A stretch of 63,464 nt of DNA, filler included. It is 4 parts of 4 records of this genome, joined end to end, with 100 filler letters (N's around TTAATTAATTAA, not from the genome) between each part and the next. Parts side by side here need not be neighbours in the genome. Positions count along the whole stretch, not along the records: positions 1 to 31,470 come from SRR20825010_3179; 3 more parts are not named here. The stretch is one strand, 5' to 3'. The position numbers and the translations under genes are program-made. Shown here piece after piece: positions 17,706-59,146 of this stretch; the first letter of the stretch is position 1; every line of letters begins with the position of its first letter. Under the pieces are notes generated by a model. The model made no database searches. It was not told the origin of the DNA and was given only the letters and a program-made list of their open reading frames with translations.

Positions 17706-18191
17706 TTACGCTTCCCCCCGATCAGGTCGGGCAGCGTCGTCAACAACCACAGACTCAACCGCCGCGATGATGCGGGAATAGGTACCGCAACGGCAAAGGT
17801 TTCCGCTCAAGGCCGCGACGATATCATCGTGAGAGGGAGCGTCGTTGTGCTGCAAAAGGTGGGCGGCGCTCATGATCTGGCCGGACTGGCAGTAACCGCA
17901 TTGGGGCACGCCATGTTCGACCCATGCCTTTTGCAAAGGATGCAGGTTTCCATCTTGCGACAGACCTTCGATGGTCGTCACATCCCCACCGTCGGCCAAT
18001 TCTACCGGGGTGGAACAGGAACGCACCGGATGCCCGTTCAGGTGCACGGTACAGGCGCCGCAGAGCCCCATGCCGCATCCAAATTTGGTACCTTTCAGTC
18101 CGAGTTCATCGCGGATCACCCACAACAGCGGAGTATCGCTGTCTATGTCGAGCATCCGCTCCCGGCCATTAACGGTAAGGCTCACGGCCAT
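17706..18191 (-). CDS. (2Fe-2S)-binding small subunit (IorA/CoxS family)
   Basis: [21 protein letters not shown] and NLCRCGTY motifs; start MAVSLTVNG. Confidence 0.92.
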
Positions 18192-18262
18192 GGTTGTTCT
18201 CTCCCCTGCTGCCCAGAGCACTGGCCCCGGCTGAGTTTTATTATTATGAACGCTGAGCGTTC

Positions 18263-18454
18263 TTATTTGATGACGTCGTTGCCGTCCTTATCCGTCCAGA
18301 TCTTCCGTTCGCCGGTTTCCATTTTACCTTGGGAGTCCCAGACCTCGCGGTCGGTTGTTGCCTCTTCCACCTTGCCGTTGTCATTCCACATAACCCGGTC
18401 TTTACATCCGGCCAGTGCCGCTACTACAAAAAGTACCAACATCAGTTGCTTCAC
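18263..18454 (-). CDS. Small lipoprotein (63 aa)
   Basis: GGAGG SD, GTG start, signal peptide ending in LAGC, and three W-xxx(x)-G repeats. Confidence 0.75.
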
Positions 18455-18493
18455 ACTTACCTCCAAACCGATCTTATCGGCGTTGGTGAATAG

Positions 18494-19072
18494 TCAGGAT
18501 CCGTGAATCTCACGGTTACGCTGTTTGTCGCGGTCGCCCTTGCGGACCATGACATAGACGGCGCCGGTGCCGCCATGGCGCTTCTGGGCCGAATGAAACG
18601 CCAGCACATCTTCCAACTCTGGCAGCCATTTGGCCAGATGGCTCTTGAGCTGGGCGATACCGTCGGGGTTACGCTCTCCCTTGCCGTGGAGAATAATGAC
18701 GGATCGAAGTCCATAGCGCACGCAATCATTAATGAAGCCGAATACATCCCGACGCGCTTCTTCAACGGTCATCCGGTGCAGGTCCAGGCGCGCTTCGATC
18801 GGGTATTGCCCAAGACGGAGCTTACGGAATACGCCATGCTGAACTCCGGGCCGTTGCCAACAGAGAACATCGTGCGCTGTCAGAGGCTCAACCATATCCG
18901 CCGTCAGTGGATTGCAGTCTCTGTGCGGCTGATCTATGGCGGACCGCTGACGCTCAAGGTGCCCTGGGGTCAGATCCTTTGGGGCTTTAACATCGGCTTT
19001 GTTCGGCTTCCGGATACGGCGGACATCCTTCATTTCCTCCAGGAAGCTCAGGCGCTCATCTTTGGTTGTCAT
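18494..19072 (-). CDS. smrA: Smr-domain endonuclease, SmrA-like
   Basis: LDLH, ILHGKG and HGGTGAVYV motifs; likely start MTTKDE at 19072. Confidence 0.88.
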   Translation of the reverse strand: MTTKDERLSFLEEMKDVRRIRKPNKADVKAPKDLTPGHLERQRSAIDQPHRDCNPLTADMVEPLTAHDVLCWQRPGVQHGVFRKLRLGQYPIEARLDLHRMTVEEARRDVFGFINDCVRYGLRSVIILHGKGERNPDGIAQLKSHLAKWLPELEDVLAFHSAQKRHGGTGAVYVMVRKGDRDKQRNREIHGS

Positions 19073-19205
19073 GGCGATATCATTTACGGTCGAAGTTGCA
19101 TGGACTTTACCACCCGGCTCACCCATCATAAAGGAGGCCCCTCGCCCTACCCACTGCCGGGCCGGGGCTGGCCCGCGCTCAGACAACCATCGTAGGGCCG
19201 GTAGA

Positions 19206-19220
19206 TAGACCGTTGGTCTA
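19206..19220. promoter_or_regulatory. Palindromic operator TAGACC-N3-GGTCTA
   Basis: Perfect 6-bp inverted repeat 37 nt upstream of the CBS/DUF294 gene; the same half-site recurs upstream of the symporter operon. Confidence 0.55.
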
Positions 19221-19257
19221 CACTTCAGGCTCATAAGCACGACAACGGACCGCGATT

Positions 19258-21174
19258 ATGACTGCCGCATCGCAAGACAGTGCACGCCCCCAGAATACCC
19301 GTGCCATCATGGCATTTCTGCGGGAGCATTCGCCTTTTTCAAACATGGACGATGCACATCTGGCCCATTATGCCGAGCATGCCTCGCTGAGATTCTACGC
19401 CGATGGCGATGTAGTGCTGTCACCGGACGATGGCCCGGTACAACGGTTCTACGTGGTCAAACAGGGCCGTATTCGCGGCGAACGGGAGCGAGACCGGGAC
19501 GGAGAAACCGAAACCACCTTTGAGATCAGCCAGGGCGAATGTTTTCCATTGGCCGCGCTGATTGGAGAACGCCCCACCCGCACACTGCATCGCGCCTCCG
19601 GAGACACCTTCTGTCTGAGCATTGAACACGACACCTTTGTCATGCTGTTCTCGCAGAGTGATCCCTTTCGTGATTTCTGCCTTCGCGGCGTCAGCAGCCT
19701 GCTTGATCAGGTGAATCAGCGCATACAGACCGGCGCCATGGCTTCCATTGGTTCCAGTAACTCGCTGGACACCCCGCTGGAACGCTACGCTATTCGCAAT
19801 CCCATCGTCTGCTCGCCGGACCTCCCGGTCCGAAAAGCGGTCGCGCGCATGCACGAAAACAGTGTCGGGAGCATCGTGATCACCGATGACGAACGGCATC
19901 CTACGGGTATATTCACCCTCAGGGACCTGCGCACCATGGTGGCAGAGGAGAAGGGCCCTCTGGACACGCCTATCGGCCAGGTCATGACCCGGAACCCCTG
20001 CTGCCTCACAGCCAACGCAGATGCTTTTGAAGCCGCCATGCTGATGGCAGAGCATCACTTTGCTCACATTTGCGTGGTGGATGACGAGCACCGACTGATT
20101 GGCATGGTATCCGAGCGTGATCTGTTCTCGCTTCAGCGGGTCGATCTGGTCAACCTTGCCAGGACCATTGGCACTGCCAGCCATCTCCGCACCCTGGTCA
20201 GCCTCCGTAAGGATGTGTCCCGGCTGGTGGACGCGATGCTCGCTCACGGGGCCGATTCCGGTCAGGTGGTAAAAATCATTACCACCTTGAACGATGTCAC
20301 TGTAAGACGGGTCCTGGAACTGAACATCAAGAAGAACGACCCCGGCATCCCTTTCACCTGGCTGACATTCGGAAGCGAAGGTCGGCAGGAACAAACCCTG
20401 TTAACAGATCAGGACAACGGCATCCTGTTCCAGACACCGGAGGGGATGACCGAGGCACAGGTCAGGGAAAAACTGCTGCCCTTCGCGGAAACCGTCAACA
20501 AGGAGCTGGCGGAATGCGGCTTTACCCTGTGCAAGGGTAATATCATGGCCAGCAATCCCAAACTGTGCCTTAGCGGCAGGGAGTGGGATGACTGGTTTGC
20601 CCGTTTCATTGACGCCTCAACCCCGCAGAATCTGGTGTATTCGTCCATTTTTCTCGACATGCGGGCGGTATTCGGGCCAATGGAACCACTGGAACGATTG
20701 CTGGATAAAGTGCTTACGCGCATACGCAAGAACGACCTGTTCCAGAAGATGCTGGCGGGCAACGCCATTACCCGCAAACCTCCCCTGACCATGTTCCGCA
20801 ACTTCCGTTATGCCCCGGATGGCAAGAAAAACACACTTGATCTGAAGCGCCAGGGGCTTGCTCCTTTCGTGGAAGCCGTTCGGGTATTTGCCCTCGCCAA
20901 TAGCGTCGGCTCGGCCAACACATTGGAGCGCATGCAACAGCTCGCCATAAAAGGTGTCTTTGACACCAAAGACGCCAACGCATGGCAGGAGGCCTACAGC
21001 CTGATCCAGGCTATCCGGATGAGGGCACACCAGGAAATGCTGGACCGGGGCGAGCCCCTGTCCAATTATATAAACCCGGATGACCTTAACCCGCTGGACC
21101 GCCGGATTCTTCGCGAATCCTTCCGACAGGCACAACGCCTGCAACAGAAACTGGAAATCACCTACCAACTCTGA
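19258..21174 (+). CDS. cNMP-binding / CBS-pair / DUF294 putative nucleotidyltransferase
   Basis: N-terminal cNMP-like beta domain, two CBS domains, GSEGRQEQTLLTDQDNG (GS..DxD) motif, C.G.IMASNP, and a C-terminal substrate-binding domain (DLK). Confidence 0.9.
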   Translation: MTAASQDSARPQNTRAIMAFLREHSPFSNMDDAHLAHYAEHASLRFYADGDVVLSPDDGPVQRFYVVKQGRIRGERERDRDGETETTFEISQGECFPLAALIGERPTRTLHRASGDTFCLSIEHDTFVMLFSQSDPFRDFCLRGVSSLLDQVNQRIQTGAMASIGSSNSLDTPLERYAIRNPIVCSPDLPVRKAVARMHENSVGSIVITDDERHPTGIFTLRDLRTMVAEEKGPLDTPIGQVMTRNPCCLTANADAFEAAMLMAEHHFAHICVVDDEHRLIGMVSERDLFSLQRVDLVNLARTIGTASHLRTLVSLRKDVSRLVDAMLAHGADSGQVVKIITTLNDVTVRRVLELNIKKNDPGIPFTWLTFGSEGRQEQTLLTDQDNGILFQTPEGMTEAQVREKLLPFAETVNKELAECGFTLCKGNIMASNPKLCLSGREWDDWFARFIDASTPQNLVYSSIFLDMRAVFGPMEPLERLLDKVLTRIRKNDLFQKMLAGNAITRKPPLTMFRNFRYAPDGKKNTLDLKRQGLAPFVEAVRVFALANSVGSANTLERMQQLAIKGVFDTKDANAWQEAYSLIQAIRMRAHQEMLDRGEPLSNYINPDDLNPLDRRILRESFRQAQRLQQKLEITYQL

Positions 21175-21191
21175 ATACCGGGTCAACAGTT

Positions 21192-21902
21192 ATGCTGGAG
21201 CAGATCAAAGACTGGATCGAACGGCGCAGGGCCGGCAGCACCGGTGGTCACGACCGAGAACACTTGCCAACGCCAAAAACCGCAGGAGACCAGCGCCTGT
21301 CAGACTGCCGGCTGATCGTACTTGATCTGGAAACGACCGGCCTCAACCCGGCAAAAGACAATGTCATCGCCATTGGCGCGGTGGCTATCCGGCACAACGC
21401 CATTGACCTGGGTGACCAGTTTGATCTGATCCTGCGTCGCCCGGAGCTGGACATCAGCGAGACGGTACTCATCCACGGCATTGGGCCGGAAGCCCTGACT
21501 CAGGGACATGAGACTGAAGACGCACTGCTCCATCTGCTGGAATGGATGAATGGCGACCCTATCCTTGCCTACCATTCCGCCTTTGACCAGAAATTCCTTG
21601 AAAAGGCTCTCAAGCAAACATTGGGCTACACCCAGCCCCACACCTGGCTCGATGTCGCCGAGATGCTTCCCGCCTACTTCCCCAATTCCAAAACCGGGGG
21701 CAAAGGACTGGACAACTGGGCCGATTTTTTCGACCTGGAAGTCAGCGCCCGCCACCATGCCGCTGCCGACGCCATGGTGACGGCTGAGTTAACCCTCGCT
21801 GTTATCAATAAGGCACAAAAAAGCGGTGTCACCAGCCTGCGTGACTTCAATGGCAAACTGAAGTACTACCGACAACTGAAGAATATCCATCGACAAGGCT
21901 AG
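21192..21902 (+). CDS. DEDDh 3'-5' exonuclease (DnaQ/PolC-like)
   Basis: DLETTG, YHSAFD and HHAAADA motifs. Confidence 0.9.
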   Translation: MLEQIKDWIERRRAGSTGGHDREHLPTPKTAGDQRLSDCRLIVLDLETTGLNPAKDNVIAIGAVAIRHNAIDLGDQFDLILRRPELDISETVLIHGIGPEALTQGHETEDALLHLLEWMNGDPILAYHSAFDQKFLEKALKQTLGYTQPHTWLDVAEMLPAYFPNSKTGGKGLDNWADFFDLEVSARHHAAADAMVTAELTLAVINKAQKSGVTSLRDFNGKLKYYRQLKNIHRQG

Positions 21903-21927
21903 AGCCCCGGAACTGTGTCGCGTTTGC

Positions 21928-21968
21928 AGACCTTTTGGCCCTCAAATAACTGAGAATTAGACCTTTTG
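21928..21968 (+). promoter_or_regulatory. Direct repeat AGACCTTTTG x2, candidate activator sites
   Basis: Identical 10-mers at 21928 and 21959, 31 bp apart, upstream of DUF4212-SSS. Confidence 0.5.
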
Positions 21969-22087
21969 CCAATATCTATCTATCGCTTGACGGGTAAAGT
22001 CGAATAGGACATCACGTCGGAGAAGAACTATATGAATAATAATTTCTCTACAACCAACACTTCACAGAAAACCCACCCAACCTCCAC

Positions 22088-22095
22088 AACAACAA
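22088..22095 (+). promoter_or_regulatory. CA-rich AAnAAnAA motif next to the RBS (Hfq/Crc-type)
   Basis: AACAACAA immediately 5' of the CAGGAG SD, within an A/C-rich leader. Confidence 0.4.
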
Positions 22096-22110
22096 TACAG
22101 GAGTGATCCT

Positions 22111-22374
22111 ATGTCAGGTCATGACTACGATGCTGTGAACTACTGGAAGGCGAACCTACGCCTTATATTCGGGAGCCTTATTGTCTGGGCCCTCGTGTCT
22201 TATGGGTTTGCGATACTGCTTCGCCCCATGCTCGCCGGAATCCCCATTGGCGGAACCGACCTCGGCTTCTGGTTCGCCCAACAGGGTTCGATTCTTACTT
22301 TCATCGCGTTGATCTTCCATTACGCCTGGCGGATGAACAAGCTCGATGAAAAATTCGACGTGCATGAGGAGTAA
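22111..22374 (+). CDS. Small membrane partner of SSS transporter (DUF4212)
   Basis: YWKANL and GFWFAQQGSI motifs; two TM helices; directly upstream of the symporter. Confidence 0.88.
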   Translation: MSGHDYDAVNYWKANLRLIFGSLIVWALVSYGFAILLRPMLAGIPIGGTDLGFWFAQQGSILTFIALIFHYAWRMNKLDEKFDVHEE

Positions 22375-22380
22375 GTTCGA

Positions 22381-24147
22381 ATGAGTCAATTTGCCATTAA
22401 CCTATTATTTGTGGGCGGCTCATTCGCCCTCTATATCGGTATCGCCATCTGGGCGAAGGCCGGTAGTACGAGTGATTTCTACGTTGCCGGCGGCGGCGTT
22501 CACCCGATCACCAACGGTGCGGCGATCGGTGCTGACTGGATGTCCGCAGCATCCTTTATCTCCATGGCGGGCCTGATTGCCGCTGGTGGTTATGCAAACT
22601 CGACGTTCCTGATGGGCTGGACAGGCGGCTACGTTCTGCTGGCCATGCTTCTGGCGCCTTACCTGCGTAAGTTTGGTAAGTTTACGGTTCCCGAGTTCAT
22701 TGGTGACCGCTTCTACAGCAAAAATGCTCGCTTGGTGGCAGTTATCTGTCTGATCGTAGCTTCTGTAACCTACGTCATCGGCCAGATGGCGGGTGCCGGC
22801 GTAGCCTTCTCCCGCTTCCTTGAAGTCGAATCAACCATGGGTCTGATCATTGCGGCTGTGGTGGTATTTGTCTACGCCGTACTCGGCGGCATGAAGGGCA
22901 TCACCTATACGCAGGTGGCTCAATACTGCGTACTGATCGTCGCCTATACCATCCCTGCGGTCTTCATCTCCCTACAGTTGACCGGTAACGCCCTGCCCCC
23001 GCTGGGTCTGTTCTCGACTCACGTGGATTCTGGCATGCCGATCCTGGACAAGCTGAACCAGGTCATCACGGATCTCGGCTTCAACGAGTACACCGCTGAT
23101 GTGGACAACAAACTGAACATGGTTCTGTTTACCCTGTCCCTGATGATCGGTACCGCTGGTCTGCCTCACGTCATTATCCGGTTCTTCACTGTGCCAAAAG
23201 TAGCGGATGCTCGCTGGTCTGCAGGCTGGGCGCTTGTTTTCATCGCCCTGCTCTACCTCACAGCGCCGGCTGTTGCTTCCATGGCTCGCTTGAACCTGAT
23301 GACCACCATCTACCCGGAAGGCACCCAAGCAGAGCCGATCCAGTATGATGAGCGTCCAAACTGGATCAAGGACTGGGAAGTCACTGGGCTGATCCAGTTC
23401 GAGGACAAAAACCAAGACGGCCGTATTCAGCTGTACAACGACTCACCTGAGTTTGAAAGCACAGCTCAGTCCCGTGGCTGGGAAGGAAACGAGCTGGTCG
23501 TTAACCGGGACATCCTGGTACTGGCCAACCCGGAAATCGCCAACCTGCCAGGATGGGTTATCGGCCTTATCGCCGCTGGTGGTCTGGCGGCAGCCCTGTC
23601 GACGGCAGCCGGTCTGTTGCTGGCAATATCGTCGGCGGTCAGTCACGACCTGATCAAAGGCTCGATAAATCCCAACATCACGGAGAAAGGCGAGCTGCTC
23701 GCAGCCCGAATATCGATGGCAGTCGCAATCTGTGTTGCCACCTATCTGGGCGCAAACCCACCGGGCTTCGCGGCACAAGTTGTTGCACTAGCCTTCGGCA
23801 TCGCAGCAGCGTCCCTGTTCCCGGCACTGATGATGGGTATTTTCTCCAAGCGGGTTAACAATGTCGGTGCAATCGCCGGTATGCTGACCGGTCTGGGCTT
23901 CACCCTGGCGTACATCTTTGTGTACAAGGGCTGGCTGTTCATTCCGGGTACCAACAACCTGGCAGACACCCCAGAAAACTGGGTACTGGGCATTTCGCCC
24001 CTGTCTATCGGTGCAGTTGGTGCTGTCGTTAACTTTGCGGTAGCCTTCATTGTGTCCAACGCAACTGAAGAACCGCCCGTTGAGATTCAGGAACTGGTTG
24101 AAAGCGTCCGCTACCCACGTGGTGCGAGTCAGGCTCACGACCACTAA
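22381..24147 (+). CDS. Sodium:solute symporter, ActP-like cation/acetate symporter
   Basis: FYVAG, ADWMSAASF, GTAGLPH and AAALSTAAGLL motifs; many TM helices. Confidence 0.92.
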   Translation: MSQFAINLLFVGGSFALYIGIAIWAKAGSTSDFYVAGGGVHPITNGAAIGADWMSAASFISMAGLIAAGGYANSTFLMGWTGGYVLLAMLLAPYLRKFGKFTVPEFIGDRFYSKNARLVAVICLIVASVTYVIGQMAGAGVAFSRFLEVESTMGLIIAAVVVFVYAVLGGMKGITYTQVAQYCVLIVAYTIPAVFISLQLTGNALPPLGLFSTHVDSGMPILDKLNQVITDLGFNEYTADVDNKLNMVLFTLSLMIGTAGLPHVIIRFFTVPKVADARWSAGWALVFIALLYLTAPAVASMARLNLMTTIYPEGTQAEPIQYDERPNWIKDWEVTGLIQFEDKNQDGRIQLYNDSPEFESTAQSRGWEGNELVVNRDILVLANPEIANLPGWVIGLIAAGGLAAALSTAAGLLLAISSAVSHDLIKGSINPNITEKGELLAARISMAVAICVATYLGANPPGFAAQVVALAFGIAAASLFPALMMGIFSKRVNNVGAIAGMLTGLGFTLAYIFVYKGWLFIPGTNNLADTPENWVLGISPLSIGAVGAVVNFAVAFIVSNATEEPPVEIQELVESVRYPRGASQAHDH

Positions 24148-24193
24148 GCAACGAATCAGCCTAATTCACTGAATGAATTAGAAGGTTGATGCC

Positions 24194-24230
24194 GAACGGG
24201 CTTCCTCTGTGAGGGAGCCCGTTCTTTTTT
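24194..24230 (+). terminator. Rho-independent terminator
   Basis: GAACGGGCTTCCTC-TGT-GAGGGAGCCCGTTC followed by T6. Confidence 0.88.
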
Positions 24231-24245
24231 AAGGAAACCCGTTTT

Positions 24246-24752
24246 ATGTTCTGGACGTTTGTCGCTACCGTTGTTTGCGGCCTGGGAGCCGCAGGTATTG
24301 CGCTCGGAATTCGGGCGATTACCCGAAACCTCGCTCCGAAGTGGATCATTCCGGTCTTTGCCGGGGCTGGTATGCTCGGGTACCTCATCTACACCGAATA
24401 CACCTGGTTTGAACAGAAACAGTCCCTGATGCCCGAAGAGGCTGTCATCGTGGACACAGAGAGCAACGGCATTCTCTGGCGCCCGTGGACGTTTTTCTTC
24501 CCTTACGTCAATGCTTTCTCGACAGTCGATACCAAAAGCATCAGCGAAACCCCGTCAAACCCGGACGTTTTGCGCTTCACCCTGTATCGCTTTGAGCAGA
24601 AAATGGTCGATGCTGTTTCTCATCGGATTCATATTCTTAACTGCAATGCCCGCGAACTTGTACCACTGGGTTCAGACGGCGCCCCACGGCTTGATAACAT
24701 GAAAAAACTGGACCCGCATGACAAACTGTTGATGACCGTTTGCGGCGAATGA
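24246..24752 (+). CDS. Hypothetical membrane-anchored protein
   Basis: Two N-terminal TM helices, AAGGA SD and a WRPWT motif. Confidence 0.7.
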   Translation: MFWTFVATVVCGLGAAGIALGIRAITRNLAPKWIIPVFAGAGMLGYLIYTEYTWFEQKQSLMPEEAVIVDTESNGILWRPWTFFFPYVNAFSTVDTKSISETPSNPDVLRFTLYRFEQKMVDAVSHRIHILNCNARELVPLGSDGAPRLDNMKKLDPHDKLLMTVCGE

Positions 24753-24804
24753 CGTTACCCCAAACCGCTCCCGAGAACCCCGGGTAGAATAAAAAGAGCG
24801 AACT

Positions 24805-27800
24805 ATGATTAGTGCCTGGTTGCTGGTCTTAATTTCCATCACCTACATTTCGATTCTTTTTGTTATTGCCTGGGCCGGCGACAAGCATCCTGGTCTCTAC
24901 CGTCGCCGACTGGCACGTACCCATATCTATGCTCTGTCACTGGCGGTCTACTTCACCTCCTGGACGTTTTACGGTGCCGTAGGCCGAGCCACTCAGGAGG
25001 GGCTCGGCTTTTTGCCAATCTATCTCGGCCCGTTACTCGTTTTTGTCTTTGGCGCTCCCCTGTTGCGCCGTATCATCTTCATCAGCAAGCGCAACAACAC
25101 CACCTCGATTGCGGACTTCATAGCATCCCGTTATGGCAAATCCCAGTCACTCGCCGCCATGGTGGCAATCTTCGCGCTGATCGGCAGTGTTCCTTACATC
25201 GCCCTGCAGCTTAAAGCCATCTCCATGGGCTTTAGCGTCCTCTCGGACACTGGCGTGGAACCCAATGAACTCAGTACCGCTGCGTGGAACGATTCGGCCT
25301 GGTATATCACGCTGGTACTCGCAGTATTTACCGTCCTGTTCGGTACCCGACACCTCGAGTCAACCGAGCACCACCGGGGCATGATACAGGCAGTGGCCTT
25401 TGAGTCGTTGATAAAGCTCGTGGCCTTCGTGGCCGTTGGCCTGTTCGTTATCTATGGTCTTTATGGCGGCTTCGGTGATCTCTGGGGCAATGTCCGCAGC
25501 GCCGGGCTCGTCGGCACACTGACCACCGACAGCGTAGAGGCTCCGGCTTTTATTACCCAAACGCTGGTGGCCATGCTGGCAATCATCTGCCTACCCCGAC
25601 AGTTCCATGTCATGGTGGTGGAAAACACCGACCACCGGGATTTTGAAACCGCCCGCTGGGCGATGCCGATTTACCTGATTATTGCCAGCGCCTTTGTTCT
25701 ACCTATTGCGGCAGCAGGCTTGTTGTCCCCGGAAGCCAGCGCGTCCGATCCGGACATTCTGATTCTGAACCTGCCAATTCTGGCCGGAGAACAATGGCTC
25801 GCTATCCTGGCATTCCTGGGCGGTGGATCAGCGGCGGCAGCAATGGTCATCGTCTGTTCGGTCGCCATCGCAACCATGGTCAGCAACGAAATCATCATGC
25901 CGGCGCTGCTGAAGTTCTTCCGCCCCGGCATGAACAAACGTTCCGATCTCAGCTACCTGCTACTCAGCATTCGACGGGTTGCTATCTTCGTGGTGCTACT
26001 CACTGCCTACGGGTTCTATCGCATGGCAGGAGCGGATTACAGCCTGACGGCCTTCGGGCTGCTCTCATTCGCCGCAGCGGCCCAGTTCGGGCCTGCACTT
26101 GTCGGAGGTATCCTCTGGCGCAAGGGCAACCATACCGGCGCTGTCTGGGGCCTTGGTCTTGGTTTCCTGATGTGGTGCTATACCCTGTTGTTACCCGCCT
26201 TGGCATCCACTGGCTGGTTAAGCGATACCCTTATTGATCATGGGGTTTGGGGCATTAACTGGACAAGGCCCACGGCTCTTTTCGGTTCTGAACTTGATCA
26301 GACCAGCCACGGCATTATCTGGAGCCTGGGCATCAACACCGTTACCTACATCGTTCTCTCGATGCTGACCCGCCAACGGGTGCGGGAAAAGATCCAGATC
26401 GCCTCGTTCTTCCACGATCCCCAACCGAGAGCTGAGACGCCGCAGCAACAGAGCTGGCAGGGTGAAATCTTGACCTCTGATCTGCAGGCAATCTCCGACC
26501 GTTTCATGGGGGAAGAGCGAGCCGAAGCCATCTTCCGCAACTACGAGCGGCGCAACGCCATTCGCCTGCACCCTCATAGGCCAGCTTCGTCACACCTGAT
26601 GAAGTTCATTGAGCGGCAACTGGCATCGGTTATCGGGGCGTCCACGGCACGCGTGGTACTGGAGTCCACGCTCACCGGGCGGGACATGCAGATCGAGGAC
26701 GTCGTGAGCATCGTCGATGAAGCCTCGCAGGCCATGACCTTCAGCCGGGAATTACTGCAATCGGCAATTGAAAACATCAGCCTGGGTGTTTCCGTCGTGA
26801 ACCACCAACAACAGCTGGTGGTATGGAACCACCGCTACCTGGAGCAATTCAGCTACCCGAAGGGCTTCGTCCGGGTCGGCCGTCCGGTGGAAGACCTGAT
26901 GCGGTACAACCTGACCAGTGCCAACCTGCCAGCGAGACGAATCGACGAGGTCATTGCTGATCGCTGCGCCAGCATGCGCGAGGGTCGGCCGATGTCCTAC
27001 GAGCGACAACGACCGGACGGCACCGTACTGAGGATTGATGGTAGCCCGATTCCCGGAGGTGGTTACGTAACCACCTTCCAGGACATCACCGCTATGCGAA
27101 GGACCGAGCAAGCGCTGAAGGAAACCAATATCTACCTGGAGCAGCGCGTCAAAGAACGCACCCAGGAACTCCAGGTGATCAATGAGCAGATGCTCAAGGC
27201 GAAATCCGTGGCTGAACAGGCCAACCAGAGCAAAACCCGCTTCCTGGCGTCAGCAAGTCATGACCTTCTCCAACCCCTGAATGCCGCGCGCCTGTTCACC
27301 TCGGCTCTGGCGGGTAAAGCCAGGGATCCTGAAATGACCGAACTGGTGGACCACATTGACAGCTCGCTGGGCGCCGCCGAAGAAATCATCAGCACCCTAT
27401 TGGACATCTCAAAGCTGGACGCCGGTGCACTGGAACCGGATATCGGTGTGTTTCCGGTTAACGAGATCATGCGGCACCTGGCAACCGATTTCTCTGCCAT
27501 CGCAAAAGACCAGGGCCTGGATCTTCATGTTGTCCCCAGCAGCGCCTGGGTACGATCAGACTCAAAACTGCTGCGGCGCGTTATCCAGAATTTTCTTTCC
27601 AACGCCATTCGTTACACCCCAAGTGGGAAAATCCTGCTGGGCTGTCGGCGTCTGAAAGGGTATATCCGCATTGAGGTATGGGATACCGGGCCGGGTATTC
27701 CGGAAGACCAGCTTACTCACATCTTCGAGGAATTCCGTCGTTTTCAGCAGGGCCGGGACAAAAAAGGCCTTGGTCTGGGGCTCGCGATTGTCGACCGCAT

Positions 27801-28323
27801 CTGTGGCATGCTAAATCACCCGGTGAACGTACAGTCAGTTCAGGGACTCGGCAGCGTATTCAGCATCACCGTGCCAGTTGCGCCGGCCGAGCAAAGTGAC
27901 CAGAGCACCACCAAATCTGCACCCGCGTCGCGGCGTGTATCGAGCCTGGGAGGCCTTCACGTGGTCTGTATCGATAATGACCCTGCTATCCTCCATGGCA
28001 TGAGTGCCTTGCTGGATAACTGGCACTGTGACGTGACAACAGCCGAAAGTCTGGAGGATGCTCGGGACAAACTGAACGGCACGAAACCGGACATCATATT
28101 GGCCGACTACCAATTGGACGATAACCGGAATGGGCTCGACGCCATGGACTCATTGAGGGACGAGATCGGCAATGATATACCTGGCATACTCATTACCGGC
28201 TATATGGCTCCGGACGTGAGGGAGGATGCGATCAACAGGGGCTACCAGATCCTTTATAAACCGGTGAAACCAGCCGCATTGCGAGCACTGGTTAACAAGT
28301 TGCTGAAACAGAAACGGTCATGA
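24805..28323 (+). CDS. crbS: SLC5-STAC-PAS hybrid histidine kinase, CrbS/MxtR-like
   Basis: N-terminal symporter-like domain (SWTFYG, PYIALQLKA), STAC-like region, PAS, H-box ASHDLLQPL, HATPase and C-terminal receiver; adjacent to an ActP-like gene. Confidence 0.85.
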   Translation: MISAWLLVLISITYISILFVIAWAGDKHPGLYRRRLARTHIYALSLAVYFTSWTFYGAVGRATQEGLGFLPIYLGPLLVFVFGAPLLRRIIFISKRNNTTSIADFIASRYGKSQSLAAMVAIFALIGSVPYIALQLKAISMGFSVLSDTGVEPNELSTAAWNDSAWYITLVLAVFTVLFGTRHLESTEHHRGMIQAVAFESLIKLVAFVAVGLFVIYGLYGGFGDLWGNVRSAGLVGTLTTDSVEAPAFITQTLVAMLAIICLPRQFHVMVVENTDHRDFETARWAMPIYLIIASAFVLPIAAAGLLSPEASASDPDILILNLPILAGEQWLAILAFLGGGSAAAAMVIVCSVAIATMVSNEIIMPALLKFFRPGMNKRSDLSYLLLSIRRVAIFVVLLTAYGFYRMAGADYSLTAFGLLSFAAAAQFGPALVGGILWRKGNHTGAVWGLGLGFLMWCYTLLLPALASTGWLSDTLIDHGVWGINWTRPTALFGSELDQTSHGIIWSLGINTVTYIVLSMLTRQRVREKIQIASFFHDPQPRAETPQQQSWQGEILTSDLQAISDRFMGEERAEAIFRNYERRNAIRLHPHRPASSHLMKFIERQLASVIGASTARVVLESTLTGRDMQIEDVVSIVDEASQAMTFSRELLQSAIENISLGVSVVNHQQQLVVWNHRYLEQFSYPKGFVRVGRPVEDLMRYNLTSANLPARRIDEVIADRCASMREGRPMSYERQRPDGTVLRIDGSPIPGGGYVTTFQDITAMRRTEQALKETNIYLEQRVKERTQELQVINEQMLKAKSVAEQANQSKTRFLASASHDLLQPLNAARLFTSALAGKARDPEMTELVDHIDSSLGAAEEIISTLLDISKLDAGALEPDIGVFPVNEIMRHLATDFSAIAKDQGLDLHVVPSSAWVRSDSKLLRRVIQNFLSNAIRYTPSGKILLGCRRLKGYIRIEVWDTGPGIPEDQLTHIFEEFRRFQQGRDKKGLGLGLAIVDRICGMLNHPVNVQSVQGLGSVFSITVPVAPAEQSDQSTTKSAPASRRVSSLGGLHVVCIDNDPAILHGMSALLDNWHCDVTTAESLEDARDKLNGTKPDIILADYQLDDNRNGLDAMDSLRDEIGNDIPGILITGYMAPDVREDAINRGYQILYKPVKPAALRALVNKLLKQKRS

Positions 28324-29960
28324 CCGAACCCACGAGCAATGCCATCGGCGCCAACTTCGGGAAACTCAGTTACCTGGTCGTCGACGACTTTGAGAACTTT
28401 CGATTGTCCATGCGGCAAATCTTGCGGAATTGCGGCGCCGACAAGATCGAGTCGGTCGCCAACGCATCCGCTGCCGTCCAGTATTGTGCCTATAACCACG
28501 TAGACGTGGTGCTTTGCGACTACAACCTGGGTGAGGGCAAGAACGGCCAGCATATACTCGAGGAGCTCCGGCACAAGAAACTCCTGAAACGCTCTTCGCT
28601 GTTTCTGATGGTGACCGCCGAAACCTCCAAGGAGATGGTGATGGGCGCCCGGGAATACCAACCTGACGGCTACCTCACCAAGCCCATCAACCGTGCCATG
28701 CTTGAAAAGCGACTGGGCGGCCTTATCGCGCAACGCAATGCCCTGCTTCCGATCAACCGGGAGATCGATCGGGAAAACTTCCCCGAGGCCATTTCTCTAT
28801 GCCTGCAGACGCTACCCTCGCAACCTCGCTACAAGACCTGGCTAATGAAAACGCTGGCCGACCTCTATTATCAGGTTGGAGACTTCAGCCATGCCCTGAA
28901 AATCCATGACGATGTACTGAGCCAGCGCGATCTGTCCTGGGCACGGCTTGGTCGTGGCAAAATTCTGATTGCCAACCAGAATTATGATGAAGCGGCGGCA
29001 ACCTTGAAAGCACTGGTGTCTCAGCATCCGGATTACATGGAAGCGTATGATCTTCTTGCCGAGGCTCTCGAAAAACAGGGCCGGCCCACCCAAGCCCAAC
29101 AGATTCTTGAGAAGGCGGCAGAGCACTCCCCTAACGCGCTGTTGCGACACAAGCACCTGGCCGTACTTGCCTCGTCCAATCAAGACATGCCGACAGCGTC
29201 CAAAGCCTGGCGGCAGACCGTCAGCCTTGGCACCTACTCGATACACGACAACTCCGAACACTATCTTGCATTGGGCCAGTCACTGTCAGACCTCAGTGAA
29301 GGGGACTCGTCAAATGAGGGCACAGCCCATGCGGACGAAGCTCTGACCATACTCCGACGTATGGAAAAGCGGTTTGCCGGACAGGAAAACATTAAGCTGC
29401 GTAGCCGAATTGTCCAGTCCCGGGTTCATGCCGGCCAGGACCGAATGAATGAAGCCCAAAATGCTCTAGACAGCGTTGCGGACGAACTCGACCCTGATCT
29501 AATGCCTCCCGAAGCCTGCCTTGACTACGCCAAGACGCTGTTCCGTCTGGGCCGGGAGGCCGATGCCAAGGGCCTGCTCAATGCCCTTGCCCTTCGTTGC
29601 AGCGATAACCCTCCGCTATTGCAGAAAATCGAGAGCTTACTCGATGAACCGGTGGGCTTCCGACAAAAACTTCAAGCCCGGTCTCTGAATCGTGAAGGCA
29701 TCAAGGCGTTCGAGGCAGGCAATCTGGAAGAGGCCGTGACCACATTCAACCGGGCACTGGATATCGTGCCCTCCCACGCCTCTCTCAATTTGAACCTGGT
29801 ACAGGTATTGATGAAGCAATATCAGGGTACAGCAGGTGATCGAGAGCTTTTGAAGCGCTGTGAAAAATGCCTGGAAAAACTCGCTGATCTGCCAGAACAA
29901 CATCGCCAGCACCGACGCCTGATCTCTTTGCGCAAGAAACTGGAGGGAATGATGTCATGA
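28320..29960 (+). CDS. Response regulator with TPR repeats
   Basis: REC domain (VVDD, LCDYNL, TKP) followed by TPR-like helices; ATGA overlap with crbS. Confidence 0.85.
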   Translation: MTEPTSNAIGANFGKLSYLVVDDFENFRLSMRQILRNCGADKIESVANASAAVQYCAYNHVDVVLCDYNLGEGKNGQHILEELRHKKLLKRSSLFLMVTAETSKEMVMGAREYQPDGYLTKPINRAMLEKRLGGLIAQRNALLPINREIDRENFPEAISLCLQTLPSQPRYKTWLMKTLADLYYQVGDFSHALKIHDDVLSQRDLSWARLGRGKILIANQNYDEAAATLKALVSQHPDYMEAYDLLAEALEKQGRPTQAQQILEKAAEHSPNALLRHKHLAVLASSNQDMPTASKAWRQTVSLGTYSIHDNSEHYLALGQSLSDLSEGDSSNEGTAHADEALTILRRMEKRFAGQENIKLRSRIVQSRVHAGQDRMNEAQNALDSVADELDPDLMPPEACLDYAKTLFRLGREADAKGLLNALALRCSDNPPLLQKIESLLDEPVGFRQKLQARSLNREGIKAFEAGNLEEAVTTFNRALDIVPSHASLNLNLVQVLMKQYQGTAGDRELLKRCEKCLEKLADLPEQHRQHRRLISLRKKLEGMMS

Positions 29961-30673
29961 CCACCAATGATCATGATGAGTTGACTCACCCCCGAGGTAC
30001 ACAGAGCATCGACTTTTCAATGGTGCTGGCCTCAGCCGTCCATGACATGAAGAATTCGCTGGGCATGTTGCTGAACTCCCTGGATGAGCTTCGCCAGGAG
30101 CAGACAGACACCATCGGCGATTCTCCCCGCTTCAACACCCTGCAGTATGAAGCCGAACGCATGCACAACGATCTGGTGCAGTTGCTGGGCATCTACAGGC
30201 TCGGCGAAAACAACCTGTCCGCACATGTTGAGGAGCACTTCGTTCCGGACTTCCTGGCCCAGCAAATGGCACGCCATACGCCGCTTCTTGAGGGCATGGG
30301 GATCGAGCTGGCGATCGAATCCGATGATATCAATGGCTTCTTCGATGAGGACCTGCTGACCGGTGTACTCAACAACACCATCAACAACGCCATCCGATAC
30401 ACCAAGAGTATGATCAAGCTGACAGCGGCGATGCATAATGATTTTCTGGTTATTGGCGTGGAAGATGACGGCGACGGATACCCGGAAAACATGCAGCACA
30501 ATGGAACGCCCAGCTTCAAATCCCTGAACTTCAACAGTGGAAGTACCAGCCTTGGGTTGTTCTTCGCATCATCGGTTGCCCAGCTTCATAGCAATGGTGA
30601 CCGCCATGGATATATCAAGCTGCACAATGATGGCCGCCTGGGCGGTGGCGTATTCGAGATCTGGCTGCCATGA
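29957..30673 (+). CDS. Soluble histidine kinase lacking a sensor domain
   Basis: VHDMKNSL H-box, NAIRY N-box, DDGDG and SLGL motifs; ATGA overlap with the upstream gene. Confidence 0.85.
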   Translation: MTTNDHDELTHPRGTQSIDFSMVLASAVHDMKNSLGMLLNSLDELRQEQTDTIGDSPRFNTLQYEAERMHNDLVQLLGIYRLGENNLSAHVEEHFVPDFLAQQMARHTPLLEGMGIELAIESDDINGFFDEDLLTGVLNNTINNAIRYTKSMIKLTAAMHNDFLVIGVEDDGDGYPENMQHNGTPSFKSLNFNSGSTSLGLFFASSVAQLHSNGDRHGYIKLHNDGRLGGGVFEIWLP

Positions 30674-30706: not shown

Positions 30707-31450
30707 ATGGCTCGAGGTCACGCTTTAATTGTCGATGATTCGTCGACGGCACGCATCATCCTGGCCCGCCTGCTGGAACGCGCCGACCTGACGACAAAAG
30801 GCGTCGCCAGCGCTGAGGAAGGCCTCACACAGTTACGTGAAGAGGCTTTCGACCTGGTTTTCCTGGACCACCTCTTGCCCGGAATGAATGGCTTGGAAGC
30901 CCTGGATGTGATCAAGGCGGACTCTGAGCTACGGCACATCCCGGTTTTCATGTACACATCGCAAAGCGCGGAACGTTATCGTCAGGATGCCAAGGCCCGT
31001 GGTGCCGCTGGTGTGATTGGCAAACAGGTTGATCGGGAACAACTCCTTACCACTATCGAGGCTATCCTGACAGATGCCTCCGCCTTGCCTAGTCTGTCGC
31101 CAATCGACAATACCACTGGCGAACTCATTGAACAAAGCTACACAAGACGACTGACAGGACGGCTCGCCACCCTGGAGATCGCCTATGAGGAAACGCACGA
31201 CGAACTCAGGCAGCTGCGCAAAAGTGTTGCCCTATTGGAAGCCATGCATCAGGAAGGTCTTGACGGGCAGCGCAACCGACTGAAGTGGCTGGCGATTGGC
31301 AGTGTCGCCGGCCTCGCAGGTATCGTTCTCTTCTTCGGTCTGGAATTGAGAGACCTGTCGATCTTGCTTGAAAGCCTGAACGGACAACTGGCCGTTATGC
31401 AGGAAATCGTAGGTAGCCTGGTTGAACTCGAGGAAGTGAGCAGGCAATAA
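30707..31450 (+). CDS. CheY-like receiver with coiled coil and C-terminal TM helix
   Basis: IVDDS and FLDHLLPGMNG receiver motifs; hydrophobic WLAIGSVAGLAGIVLFFGL segment. Confidence 0.8.
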   Translation: MARGHALIVDDSSTARIILARLLERADLTTKGVASAEEGLTQLREEAFDLVFLDHLLPGMNGLEALDVIKADSELRHIPVFMYTSQSAERYRQDAKARGAAGVIGKQVDREQLLTTIEAILTDASALPSLSPIDNTTGELIEQSYTRRLTGRLATLEIAYEETHDELRQLRKSVALLEAMHQEGLDGQRNRLKWLAIGSVAGLAGIVLFFGLELRDLSILLESLNGQLAVMQEIVGSLVELEEVSRQ

Positions 31451-52424: not shown

Positions 52425-53797
52425 GCGAACAGCTCCCTGATTTCGCGAACTCCGAAGTCGACCAGCGGGAACGGACGTCCGCCGGGACCGGGCAATTCCG
52501 CGTGCAGATCCAGATCCATTGCTTTGAAGATCGTTGCGATGATCTCGCCGGGGTTGGTCGGGCGATCCGCGGGAACGCCGCCGACCGGGTCCGACTTCCC
52601 AACCGCTCTTCCTCCGACCACGCCGCCACCCGCGAACGTGCATGAGAAACACTGTGGCCAGTGATCTCGTCCTCCCGCCGGATTGACTTTGGGGGTGCGT
52701 CCAAACTCGGCCAGCCCACAAACCATGGTGTCGTCGAGCAAACCGCGATCGTGCAGATCAGTGATCAATGCCGAGTAGGCTTGGTCATACATGGGAGCCA
52801 CAATGTTTTTCATGCCTTCAATGGTCGTGAACGGTTTGCTGCCATGGATGTCCCAAGTGACTTCATTGAAGACCGTCAAAAAAGTGTTGATGGTGACGAA
52901 CCGCACGCCGGCTTCAATCAGACGGCGAGCTAGCAAGCAGCATTGACCGAAGCGGTTCATGCCATAACGTTCACGGACCGAAGTCGGTTCCTTGGAAAGA
53001 TCGAATGCCATGCGAGCTTCGGGGCTGTTCATCATCCGATAAGCAGCTTCAAAGTTGGCGTCGAACAGCTTCGCCGACTCGGTGGATTCGAACCGAGCCA
53101 TGTGGCTTTCGATCGAATCACGCATCCGCCGCCGTCGATCAATGCGAACATCCGGTAGCGACGATGGAGGCAGCAGGTCAGGGACTTTGAAGTTTGGCTG
53201 GCTCGGATCCGCCATCAACGCAAATGGATCGTAAGCTTTCCCAAGAAAGCCACCAGCTTGTCCGTTGGGCAGATTCCCACCGCCCCGTCCCATTGTTTGC
53301 GGCAAAACAACATGGGCGGGCAAGTCCGTGCGGCGTCCCTGAAGGTATTCAACAACCGCACCGGCATGCGGGTAGTTCACGCCGCCCGTGAACTGACGCC
53401 CCGTCTGCAGCATTTGCCATCCCGCATCGTGAACGGCGGCGGCCGTGTGATAACACGAACGAACAATGGAAAACATGTCCGCGATCTCCGCGTGTTTTGG
53501 CAGGATCTCCGTCAGCTCAAAATCGCCGCGAGTCGCAATGGTTTTAAACGGCCCGCGAACCTCCACCGGTGCGTTCGGCTTCGGGTCGAAAGTGTCCATC
53601 TGACTGGGAGCCCCCAGATTGAAAATCATGATGCATGATTTTCGATCGGTGTTCTTTCCTGCGGCACCGGCGGCTTCGGCAGCCAACAGTTGCGGTAACC
53701 CAAAGCCAAGCATTCCGAGGGTTCCGACCTGCAAAAAATCGCGACGGGTCGTCCCGTTGCATGTGTGAGTCTTGGCACGGGATGTCAGATTCAACAT
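52421..53797 (-). CDS. DUF1501 family protein with Tat-like signal
   Basis: TRRDFLQ, G.PSQMDTFDPKP, LLARRLIEAGVRFV, WDIH and EFGRTP..GRDHWP motifs. Confidence 0.92.
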   Translation of the reverse strand: MLNLTSRAKTHTCNGTTRRDFLQVGTLGMLGFGLPQLLAAEAAGAAGKNTDRKSCIMIFNLGAPSQMDTFDPKPNAPVEVRGPFKTIATRGDFELTEILPKHAEIADMFSIVRSCYHTAAAVHDAGWQMLQTGRQFTGGVNYPHAGAVVEYLQGRRTDLPAHVVLPQTMGRGGGNLPNGQAGGFLGKAYDPFALMADPSQPNFKVPDLLPPSSLPDVRIDRRRRMRDSIESHMARFESTESAKLFDANFEAAYRMMNSPEARMAFDLSKEPTSVRERYGMNRFGQCCLLARRLIEAGVRFVTINTFLTVFNEVTWDIHGSKPFTTIEGMKNIVAPMYDQAYSALITDLHDRGLLDDTMVCGLAEFGRTPKVNPAGGRDHWPQCFSCTFAGGGVVGGRAVGKSDPVGGVPADRPTNPGEIIATIFKAMDLDLHAELPGPGGRPFPLVDFGVREIRELFA

Positions 53798-54009
53798 GGC
53801 TGCGGTTCCAGGGGCTGGATCGAGAGCCGATGATCGGTTGTGGGGACGATCAGTGGGCGGATCAGATGGGCGGGAATCGTCCTTCGACGATCTTGACCAT
53901 TGTAGCTGAACACGCCACGTCATTTGGGTTGCGATTCGTGCGTCCTCGTTCCGCTTTCGGATGAGATATCATTTCCGATAGCACCACAGTGGTCCTATCC
54001 GTGTTTCTC

Positions 54010-58495: not shown

Positions 58496-58834
58496 GTGTC
58501 AACGCTCCTGCTTTCCAAGCAATCTCTGTGAATCGATACCCAGCACGCATTAGAGCGGATCGGGAATACTTGGGCAGGTAGGCGGAAATAATCGGGCATC
58601 ACCGAGTGGGAGTTTGGGGAGTTGCCCAGAGTTGCACCTGGGACGACCGCACTGGCCTAAAGTGATTCAGCGTCAAAAGACTCCTTCCCAGTTTCTCGCG
58701 GGGCGAAATGCCAGGGTTCCGTCTTCAAAACAAACAGTCGGAAACGATTCAGAAGCCCGCACTCGCTGTCGCCTGGACAAGAGATCCTCGGACGACATCT
58801 CAAGCTGCTTTCTAGCCACAGAGGTCACCGAGAG

Positions 58835-58934
58835 NNNNNNNNNNNNNNNNNNNNNNNNNNNNNNNNNNNNNNNNNNNNTTAATTAATTAANNNNNNNNNN
58901 NNNNNNNNNNNNNNNNNNNNNNNNNNNNNNNNNN
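58835..58934. other. Artificial contig spacer
   Basis: N-TTAATTAATTAA-N linker. Confidence 0.99.
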
Positions 58935-58963
58935 GTGGAAACCCAAACCATGGAGTTAAACTT

Positions 58964-59124: not shown

Positions 59125-59146
59125 TTTTGACTAGTCTTCCAAAACT

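Follow-up and report, generated by a model that had tools for sequence, protein, structure and literature searches.

The window analyzed here, a 63,464-nt stretch of DNA (filler included) joined from four parts of one genome, carries in its first part (positions 1 to 31,470, record SRR20825010_3179) two plus-strand genes that encode a sensor nucleotidyltransferase of the COG2905/DUF294 type (638 aa, 19258-21174) and a DEDDh RNase_T/DnaQ-like protein with a 3'-5' exonuclease fold (236 aa, 21192-21902). Given that such genes lie side by side in 71 of 77 loci and occur as fusions in a large protein family, the pair is one functional unit, and this unit is tied, both genomically and genetically, to monocarboxylate symporters of the sodium:solute symporter (SSS) family, often along with acs. 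The best explanation is that the pair belongs to the carboxylate uptake and activation regulon that is run by CrbS/R (MxtR/ErdR) in Pseudomonas and Vibrio. We propose that the DUF294 and DEDDh proteins make up a two-enzyme regulatory switch that is equipped with sensor domains and follows a GlnD-like logic; the switch reading is plausible as a whole, and we put its probability at about 0.4.

As a gene pair, the module is not new because it is orthologous to the published PP_0354/PP_0353, Pflu5625 and PA3233/PA3232 genes. What is new here is the adjacency count, the fusion family with both active sites, the GlnE/DrrA-like fold and the recurrent alphaproteobacterial symporter clusters. Judging from its sequence, the source of the window is a Marinobacter: the M. 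vulgaris counterpart of the DUF294 protein shares 92% identity with it.

Coupling of the DUF294 and exonuclease genes

The survey of gene neighborhoods is based on an alignment (A1, 64 rows) of the window DUF294 protein with 63 diverse representatives, relatives that are 26-53% identical to it and were picked from 150 listed clusters (1,599 clusters were found at E <= 1e-30). A profile search with A1 was run against contigs from one genome per species, and the best 80 of at least 620 matches are the 80 loci considered below; the locus counts are not phylogenetically independent because about 58 of the 80 are from Pseudomonadaceae. Genes in these loci were called as homology-anchored open reading frames (ORFs), given that longest-ORF calling produced antisense ORFs at high G+C content. 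The set was complemented with 12 annotated plasmid and chromid loci that are 22-32% identical to the query and were picked for a DUF294 annotation under the match.

Among the 77 loci with at least 750 nt of downstream sequence, an RNase_T gene lies directly 3' of the DUF294 gene, on the same strand, in 71, and 55 of these 71 pairs have a 4-nt overlap between the start and stop codons. The six exceptions include three loci from Ectothiorhodospiraceae, in which a gene for an exonuclease of about 690 aa and a REC gene are located upstream of the DUF294 gene and diverge from it; L080, in which the exonuclease is carried by another DUF294 paralog; and L074 and L077, in which no exonuclease was found within 10 kb. 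The exonuclease gene is located no more than three genes downstream in 11 of the 12 plasmid and chromid loci, including those from Alphaproteobacteria and one from Bacillota; for the remaining one, in Skermanella rosea, no exonuclease is listed in a gene table that is known to be incomplete.

Among longer relatives of the exonuclease, a protein (P0275) with the architecture RNase_T-CBS-CBS-DUF294-DUF294_C was identified. When the N-terminal 260 residues of this protein were used as the query, RNase_T was found together with DUF294 and/or DUF294_C in 116 of the 120 listed clusters (P0275 and P0286-P0404), the other four being shorter RNase_T+CBS proteins. The fusion proteins are typically about 703 aa long, several are encoded on genome-size contigs, some of the clusters are named by their source as Burkholderiales, Betaproteobacteria or Gammaproteobacteria, and both sets of catalytic residues are invariant in 23 aligned members. 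Because the exonuclease is N-terminal and occupies the place of the cNMP domain, these are true domain fusions rather than read-through artefacts. A search of plasmids for fused forms yielded none, only further split pairs.

Domain architecture and predicted structure of the two proteins

The DUF294 protein consists of domains that all score above the respective Pfam cut-offs: cNMP_binding (residues 45-133; 1.6e-9, 38 bits versus a cut-off of 27.5), a CBS pair in two stretches (about residues 175-291; 1.4e-25, 89.8 bits versus 24), DUF294 (PF03445), a nucleotidyltransferase domain of the polymerase beta (pol-beta) type (residues 319-457; 1.2e-42, 145.5 bits versus 21), and the helical DUF294_C domain (PF10335; residues 495-633; 1.8e-43, 148.3 bits versus 22.5). 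The combination of PF03445 and PF10335, both above the gathering scores, with an N-terminal CBS pair and cNMP domain defines a protein of the COG2905 type. In the translation, the GS...DxD motif is intact (FGSEGRQEQTLLTDQDNG) and conforms to the pol-beta pattern hG[GS]x9-13Dh[DE]h, with G372-S373 and D384-Q-D386 as the motif residues and D467 as the probable third carboxylate of the nucleotidyltransferase site. Across the 64 aligned sequences, G372, D467 and R469 never vary, and conservation reaches at least 90% at S373, D384 and D386; thus, the cNMP-CBS-nucleotidyltransferase with an intact motif that was described in the first-pass annotation of this DNA is borne out by the domain matches and by conservation in relatives.

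Both CBS motifs, GIFTLRD and GMVSERD, have the form G-h-h-S/T-x-x-D, which we take to be a mark of adenosyl-ligand binding; in the same alignment, G217 and G282 do not vary, and conservation is at least 90% at T220, D223 and D288. The presence of the CBS domains is what lies behind the putative gating by energy charge that this annotation had proposed. The DUF294 protein is probably cytosolic because it has no hydrophobic segment. The start at 19258 is supported by a stretch coding for PQNTRAIM that is kept in eight Marinobacter-group sequences; on account of the same conserved upstream stretch, we rejected an alternative start at M18 (19309), which had been considered given that alignments with homologs often begin at residues 12-20.

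The catalytic half of the protein (residues 299-638) was modeled with AF2 (AlphaFold2) from a 33-row alignment, with a pLDDT of 93.5. A Foldseek comparison of this model with the PDB gave only four matches at E <= 0.001, all of them to GlnE or DrrA: the adenylylation domain of GlnE at the top (3k7d, chains A and B; 3k7d_A, E 1.3e-7, TMq 0.67), DrrA bound to Rab8a (6yx5_B; E 3.9e-7, TMq 0.61) and the N-terminal domain of GlnE (1v4a; E 1.5e-6, TMq 0.68). These matches span the whole 340 residues, at TM values of 0.61-0.68, and include the topology that is typical of GlnE and DrrA, namely, a nucleotidyltransferase domain followed by a C-terminal helical substrate-binding domain. Aminoglycoside nucleotidyltransferases and the MntA antitoxin form a second tier (E >= 0.03), the RNA uridylyltransferase Tailor ranks low (E 0.49, probability 0.13), and the matches listed for this model include neither cGAS/OAS-type or CD-NTase structures nor a CCA-adding enzyme or poly(A) polymerase. 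Judged by the model, the nearest structural relatives of the catalytic half are the protein AMPylators GlnE and DrrA, rather than RNA or cyclic-nucleotide transferases. At the sequence level, a PDB search with the whole protein retrieved proteins with CBS and cNMP domains only, none of them matching the catalytic half, and no GlnD or GlnE family model in NCBIfam was matched. The DUF294_C domain has been grouped with the C-terminal domains of GlnD and GlnE (PMC3710099).

The second protein matches RNase_T in Pfam at 1.8e-22. D45, E47, H188 and D193 do not vary across 23 orthologs, and D132 shows at least 90% conservation; hence, the DEDDh set is intact, with the Exo I DxE, Exo II D and Exo III H-x4-D motifs set in an RNase H-like fold. 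The DUF294 stop codon ends at 21174 and the exonuclease ATG is at 21192, so that the intact nuclease gene indeed follows after 17 nt, as the first-pass annotation had it. The core is flanked by an N-terminal extension of about 40 residues (helix 2-15) and a C-terminal helix. The AF2 model of this protein (pLDDT 89.6) matches DinG, PolC, DnaQ and RNase T in Foldseek at E values from 1e-12 to 1e-8, and Cap18, a CBASS-associated exonuclease, comes at rank 17. The protein passes the threshold of the dnaq family domain TIGR00573 (89.9 bits versus 71.5) and falls far short of DnaQ proper, scoring 58.1 bits against the 222.7 of the dnaQ_proteo equivalog TIGR01406 and 58.6 against the 196 of PRK05711.

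A long form of the exonuclease (465-695 aa), with RNase_T at the C-terminus, is found in Ectothiorhodospiraceae and Alphaproteobacteria. It is represented by minus-strand ORFs in three loci (L070:7388-9466, L073:7425-9497 and L067:3039-5135) and by proteins of 646-694 aa annotated as '3'-5' exonuclease' in L082, L087 and L088. In the two Ectothiorhodospiraceae long forms that were scanned, a weak-to-moderate PAS match (E 4.8e-7 and 4.4e-4) precedes RNase_T, and one scanned protein has a marginal HisKA-like stretch. A single-domain REC gene adjoins the long exonuclease gene in 8 of the 11 loci of this kind. Because of the PAS region and the neighboring single-domain response regulator, the exonuclease in its long form appears to be under signal control.

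Association with monocarboxylate symporters

The pair in the window is followed, on the plus strand, by genes for a DUF4212 small membrane subunit of a symporter (87 aa, 22111-22374; Pfam 4e-33, TIGR03647 109.9 bits) and, 6 nt further 3', for a VC_2705-family sodium:solute symporter (588 aa, 22381-24147; TIGR03648, 835.8 bits versus a cut-off of 320.75). The first-pass annotation had called this transporter ActP-like. The assignment to the SSS family stands, but the label is loose because the score with the ActP equivalog TIGR02711 (153 bits) is far below the cut-off (1099.25), and the partner is DUF4212 instead of DUF485 (YjcH); on sequence grounds, we classify the protein as an SSS symporter of the monocarboxylate type, not ActP proper.

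A symporter of the VC_2705 type was found within 10 kb of the pair in 23 of the 80 loci. In 9 of the 12 plasmid loci, a symporter with its small subunit (of the DUF4212 or the DUF485/ActP type) is encoded immediately upstream; acs belongs to the cluster in 4 of the 12 and an adenylate kinase gene in 2. The latter two are located in or next to an acs-DUF4212-SSS-DUF294-exonuclease cluster on plasmids of Rhodobacterales (L086:2618-3307 and L092:2853-3539), a hint that the system includes the handling of AMP. A metagenome-assembled genome of Chromatiales (L080, 5589-18923) has the order DUF294-DUF485-ActP-type SSS-DUF294-DUF4212-SSS-DUF294-exonuclease-acs, with three DUF294 paralogs alternating with symporters of the ActP and VC_2705 types. 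In Paenalcaligenes (L074), an ActP-type SSS, a REC-GerE regulator and a CrbS-like kinase adjoin the DUF294 gene. Thus, the linkage of DUF294, exonuclease and SSS genes for which a survey had been suggested recurs across Gammaproteobacteria and Alphaproteobacteria, and these data support a connection of the unit to monocarboxylate SSS symporters, and sometimes acs, in both classes.

Genetic data point in the same direction. Pairs of DUF4212 and SSS proteins are needed for growth on D,L-lactate in Shewanella or on D-alanine in P. stutzeri, and cofitness with DUF4212/SSS was seen, in Shewanella amazonensis and P. stutzeri, for a neighbor gene described as 'COG2905 (RNAse T domain protein)' (10.1101/072470). 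The first-pass annotation had suggested measuring acetate uptake; the VC_2705-type homologs are tied in that study to D,L-lactate and D-alanine, not to acetate.

Probable membership in the CrbS/R regulon

The acetate switch of Vibrio, Pseudomonas and Shewanella is under the control of CrbS/R (MxtR/ErdR). PP_0354/PP_0353 are described as the genes with the strongest dependence on it (10.64898/2026.09.07.749794). The pp_0354 promoter is bound by ErdR, and pp_0354 and pp_0353 form an operon (PMC9927547). The Pflu5625 protein is CrbS-dependent and has an ACTU motif in its promoter region, and the actP promoter drives transcription of homologs in PAO1, Acinetobacter, Shewanella frigidimarina and Thalassolituus (PMC5715377); propionate raises PA3232-PA3235 about 16-fold (PMC9765439). 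The window DUF294 protein is 52-57% identical over its full length to the Pseudomonas homologs, and a CrbS-like kinase is encoded three genes (about 2.9 kb) downstream. We assume CrbR control of the window genes on the strength of orthology and the adjacent CrbS-like kinase. The conserved module is real, and its role in the CrbS/R regulon is published for the orthologs.

The phenotypes of P. putida mutants bear directly on the relationship between the two proteins. On pyruvate, growth is impaired in Δpp_0353, ΔactP-I, ΔmxtR and ΔerdR but not in Δpp_0354 (PMC9927547); this pyruvate result has been repeated, and ΔyjcH is also impaired (10.64898/2026.09.07.749794). Such an asymmetry would be anticipated if the transporter were inhibited by the transferase and freed from this inhibition by the exonuclease.

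In the upstream region of the DUF294 gene, the palindrome TAGACCGTTGGTCTA (19206-19220) was considered as a CrbR/ACTU site and rejected: the two halves are separated by one base more than in the motif, and the left half is not kept in the other seven Marinobacter-group loci. Near this palindrome, only GGTCTACACT, a possible -10 region, is conserved.

The proposed switch and alternative explanations

Under the proposed switch, the DUF294 module would be a protein nucleotidyltransferase of the GlnE/DrrA type, with its activity set by the ligands of the CBS domains, probably adenine nucleotides, and by the ligand of the cNMP-like domain. The transferase would put a nucleoside monophosphate (NMP) on a hydroxyl group of one of the uptake-system proteins, candidate targets being the symporter, its small subunit, a 168-aa membrane protein and the CrbS-like sensor that are encoded downstream, and nucleotidylation would lower uptake. 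The DEDDh enzyme would hydrolyze the X-O-P bond and free 5'-NMP, the protein hydroxyl replacing the usual 3'-OH leaving group, and this removal would restore activity. The parts list would then be GlnD-like, with DUF294 as the writer, the DEDDh protein as the eraser, and the CBS and cNMP domains as the sensor.

The individual steps rest on different kinds of evidence. Protein-directed chemistry of the transferase is suggested by the fold similarity seen in the model, and antagonism between the two enzymes by the asymmetry of the P. putida mutants. The role of a de-nucleotidylase for the DEDDh enzyme is suggested by chemistry because hydrolysis of X-O-P(O2)-O5'-N to 5'-NMP is the same bond-breaking step as in exonucleolysis. 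In its most specific form, in which the 'exonuclease' is in vivo a protein de-nucleotidylase and a reversible, CBS/cNMP-gated nucleotidylation switch throttles SSS carboxylate uptake according to the adenylate state, the proposal is tentative and rather doubtful. Both the connection to the acetate regulon and the notion of regulation by nucleotidylation have been published before (PMC5715377; 10.64898/2026.09.07.749794); casting the exonuclease as the eraser is original to the first-pass annotation, and the literature searches turned up neither a reaction for one of the two proteins nor a proposal that the exonuclease removes the modification. The literature matches to 'DUF294' that were examined concerned DUF2946, a copper-related family.

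Several observations weigh against the switch or against its connection to carboxylate uptake. Every Foldseek match listed for the second protein is a nucleic-acid exonuclease (DinG, PolC, DnaQ, RNase T, ExoI, ExoX, Cap18), and we know of no DEDDh enzyme that cleaves a protein-nucleotide adduct. No report of NMP transfer, of a target or of removal by the exonuclease was found in the literature. No VC_2705-type symporter is encoded within 10 kb in 57 of the 80 loci, and in two Vibrio plasmids and in Cytobacillus (Bacillota) the pair stands alone among unrelated genes; hence, the target of the switch need not be the symporter. No canonical core of the ACTU (CrbR) inverted repeat, scored as K-A-C-N4-G-T-M from the examples in PMC5715377, was detected in the regions upstream of the DUF294 gene (about 19076-19257) or between the exonuclease and DUF4212 genes (21903-22110). 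Deletion of Pflu5625 has no acetate phenotype (PMC5715377), and neither the pp_0353 nor the pp_0354 deletion alters growth on acetate or succinate (PMC9927547). The cofit gene (Psest_0349 / Sama_1525) is ambiguous because its COG number fits DUF294 and its description fits the exonuclease (10.1101/072470). Growth on propionate is worse in both ΔPP_0353 and ΔPP_0354, and not in ΔactP-I or ΔyjcH (10.64898/2026.09.07.749794); because of these phenotypes, simple antagonism on ActP alone cannot be the whole story. Taken together, the mechanistic interpretation of that annotation is partly supported: a nucleotidyltransferase fold of the protein-modifying GlnE/DrrA kind was found, and opposing activities would fit the pyruvate asymmetry but not the propionate phenotypes.

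The main rival is a switch that acts on RNA 3' ends, in which the transferase tails an mRNA, a small RNA or a tRNA, the DEDDh enzyme trims it, and the stability or translation of transporter or metabolic transcripts is controlled, in a manner likened to Cca/RNase T end turnover or to pairs of TUTases and exoribonucleases. A polymerase-type nucleotidyltransferase with a 3'-5' exonuclease is a classic combination, and the structural relatives of the exonuclease, including RNase T, all work on nucleic-acid 3' ends; degradation of mRNAs by pp_0353 (PMC9927547) and a requirement of the gene for symporter expression (10.1101/072470) have been suggested as speculations by Henriquez et al. and Price et al., respectively. 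The transferase itself, however, has no significant match to an RNA-specific nucleotidyltransferase, as opposed to the full-length matches to GlnE and DrrA at E values of 1e-7 to 1e-6; its DUF294_C domain belongs with those of GlnD and GlnE (PMC3710099); and the Rfam search over 18000-25000 identified no RNA family. We consider this explanation unlikely. In another scheme, the transferase would respond to the CBS or cNMP ligand by synthesizing an (oligo)nucleotide messenger, linear or cyclic, and the exonuclease would degrade it. Polymerase beta-type nucleotidyltransferases do include messenger synthases, DEDDh enzymes such as Orn degrade short oligonucleotides, CBASS-associated Cap18 is among the Foldseek matches of the exonuclease, and the fusion of a synthase with a degrader is a known signalling logic. 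Yet no cGAS, OAS or CD-NTase is among the Foldseek matches listed for the transferase, no obvious receptor gene is conserved in the neighborhoods examined, and the nucleotide signal that the first-pass annotation offered as an alternative thus gains no support from the fold search; we regard this scheme as improbable.

Least probable of all, in our view, are unrelated functions, with the transferase modifying a small molecule or itself and the exonuclease being co-transcribed for nucleic-acid housekeeping or repair. The second tier of structural matches consists of aminoglycoside nucleotidyltransferases, and the divergent neighbor in Marinobacter is the DNA endonuclease SmrA, but mere co-transcription is argued against by the fusion, which keeps both active sites, and by adjacency that spans Gammaproteobacteria to Bacillota. 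Furthermore, the exonuclease is below the dnaQ equivalog cut-off, and the Δpp_0353 phenotype is carbon-source-specific, with no DNA-utilization phenotype (PMC9927547). Part of the probability is assigned to none of these explanations.

If the nucleotidylation switch exists, it would add a post-translational layer to carboxylate uptake and provide an example of housekeeping AMPylation or UMPylation beyond GlnD and GlnE. The DEDDh protein would become the first member of its fold with a demonstrated ability to strip an NMP off a protein hydroxyl, and this very large family would gain a new reaction class. Such a switch would be widespread in Proteobacteria, in the form of split genes, as a single fused polypeptide, and with eraser variants under PAS/REC control. 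Should the RNA 3'-end explanation be true instead, the pair would be a bacterial tailing and trimming system dedicated to a metabolic regulon, which is also uncommon.

Neighboring genes and other features of the window

Downstream of the symporter, on the plus strand, the window encodes a 168-aa membrane protein (24246-24752), an ORF between the symporter and the kinase that the first-pass annotation had missed. The protein has no family in Pfam or NCBIfam, and a Protein Atlas search returned only unnamed 'hypothetical protein' clusters. It starts with one or more hydrophobic segments, followed by a domain of about 110 aa with two conserved Cys and the conserved motifs PKW..P, EYxWF and WRPWT. 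It is homologous to the 'hypothetical protein' whose gene separates those for DUF294 and the exonuclease in Shinella (E 8e-27) and in Paracoccus denitrificans (E 2e-16), and its homologs adjoin a DUF4212-type symporter in some Pseudomonas. When the family was traced by jackhmmer in 90 loci, it was found in 17, nearly always beside a DUF4212-type symporter (L026 ends before the position of the symporter). Sequence comparison thus identifies the 168-aa protein as a further component of the cluster; it could be an accessory subunit of the transporter, an adaptor or the target of the switch.

The CrbS-like hybrid sensor kinase (1172 aa, 24805-28323, plus strand) contains PAS_7, HisKA, HATPase and REC domains in Pfam. 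About 11-14 hydrophobic segments are predicted in its N-terminal 465 or so residues, a polytopic region that fits the CrbS-type architecture; Pfam detected no SSF domain in it. The kinase gene adjoins the module in all eight Marinobacter-group loci and in L029, and diverges from the DUF294 gene in L074. With DUF4212, the symporter and this kinase, all the downstream genes that the first-pass annotation listed are in place. Three more signaling genes follow on the plus strand, for a REC-TPR protein (28320-29960), a HATPase_c protein of 238 aa (29957-30673) and a protein with REC and an unknown C-terminus (30707-31450), all assigned with Pfam. The first two are found in the same order in L001-L008; the third is present in L004 and L008 only, and most such loci end nearby. 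The link of these three genes to the module is positional only.

The exonuclease and DUF4212 genes are 208 nt apart, with no terminator-like hairpin in this gap, which contains two copies of the direct repeat AGACCTTTTG (21928-21937 and 21959-21968, plus strand) that are 31 nt apart from start to start. The window has three matches to AGACCTTTTG versus 0.10 expected, and the sequence occurs once in the equivalent gap of the Marinobacter-group loci L001, L002, L004 and L006. The repeat may be a candidate regulator-binding site acting as a local operator. A strong terminator-like hairpin, with a 14-bp stem followed by a T run, was found by a consensus scan only, at 24194-24224 on the plus strand, between the symporter and 168-aa genes.

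Upstream, on the minus strand, a gene for a SmrA-type DNA endonuclease (18494-19240; NF033154, 232 bits) diverges from the DUF294 gene. A gene of this type is upstream of DUF294 in seven of the eight Marinobacter-group loci, and in the remaining one, L002, hardly any upstream sequence is available. The start of the 248-aa ORF in the window has probably been placed too far upstream: the family is matched only from residue 62 onward, and the ORFs of orthologs have a length of about 193 aa.

Elsewhere in the window, a Planctomycete-type cluster of three genes on the minus strand (47131-53923), which is unusual in Marinobacter, encodes a PSCyt1 + WD40 protein (930 aa), a PSCyt2/PSD1 (DUF1549/DUF1553) protein (933 aa) and a DUF1501 protein (500 aa). 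At about 58000-62000, over an OmpR-type two-component pair (59312-61386), the G+C content is 0.44 versus about 0.55-0.58, and this region may be acquired DNA. A gene for an AcrB-family pump (61461-63464) follows the OmpR-type pair and runs off the end of the window.

Comparison with known systems

The closest counterparts of the window pair are PP_0354/PP_0353, Pflu5625 and PA3233/PA3232, which have the same domain architecture and gene order. In the Pseudomonas homologs, including those of P. entomophila and P. fluorescens, the DUF294 protein is 52-57% identical to that of the window and the exonuclease 37-49%, and the pairs of both lineages are associated with carboxylate symporters and a CrbS-type kinase. 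The surroundings differ: the pair stands alone in P. putida KT2440 and P. fluorescens SBW25 and adjoins actP/yjcH in P. aeruginosa PAO1, whereas in the window it is directly upstream of the VC_2705/DUF4212 symporter, the 168-aa protein and the kinase. The 17-nt gap in the window replaces the 4-nt overlap that is usual in Pseudomonas, and no canonical ACTU core lies upstream.

GlnE and GlnD share with the DUF294 protein a polymerase beta-type nucleotidyltransferase domain followed by a helical substrate-binding domain, and the logic of a co-encoded writer, eraser and small-molecule sensor matches as well. The sequence identity is only 13-15%, however; the sensors are of the CBS and cNMP-like kind here and ACT domains there, and the place of the putative DEDDh eraser is taken by a second nucleotidyltransferase-like domain in GlnE and by an HD domain in GlnD. 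The AMPylation domain of DrrA/SidM, the Legionella AMPylase of Rab1 and Rab8, is a top structural match of the transferase. Its modification is removed by a separate antagonist, the de-AMPylase SidD, which has a phosphatase fold and offers a parallel to the proposed eraser. DrrA is a secreted effector that acts on host GTPases, whereas the system in the window would serve cytosolic housekeeping regulation with a DEDDh partner. The exonuclease, in turn, has the DEDDh fold and the five catalytic residues in common with DnaQ (Pol III epsilon), PolC, DinG and RNase T, and differs from this group by its conserved N-terminal extension of about 40 residues and in always being encoded with, or fused to, DUF294.

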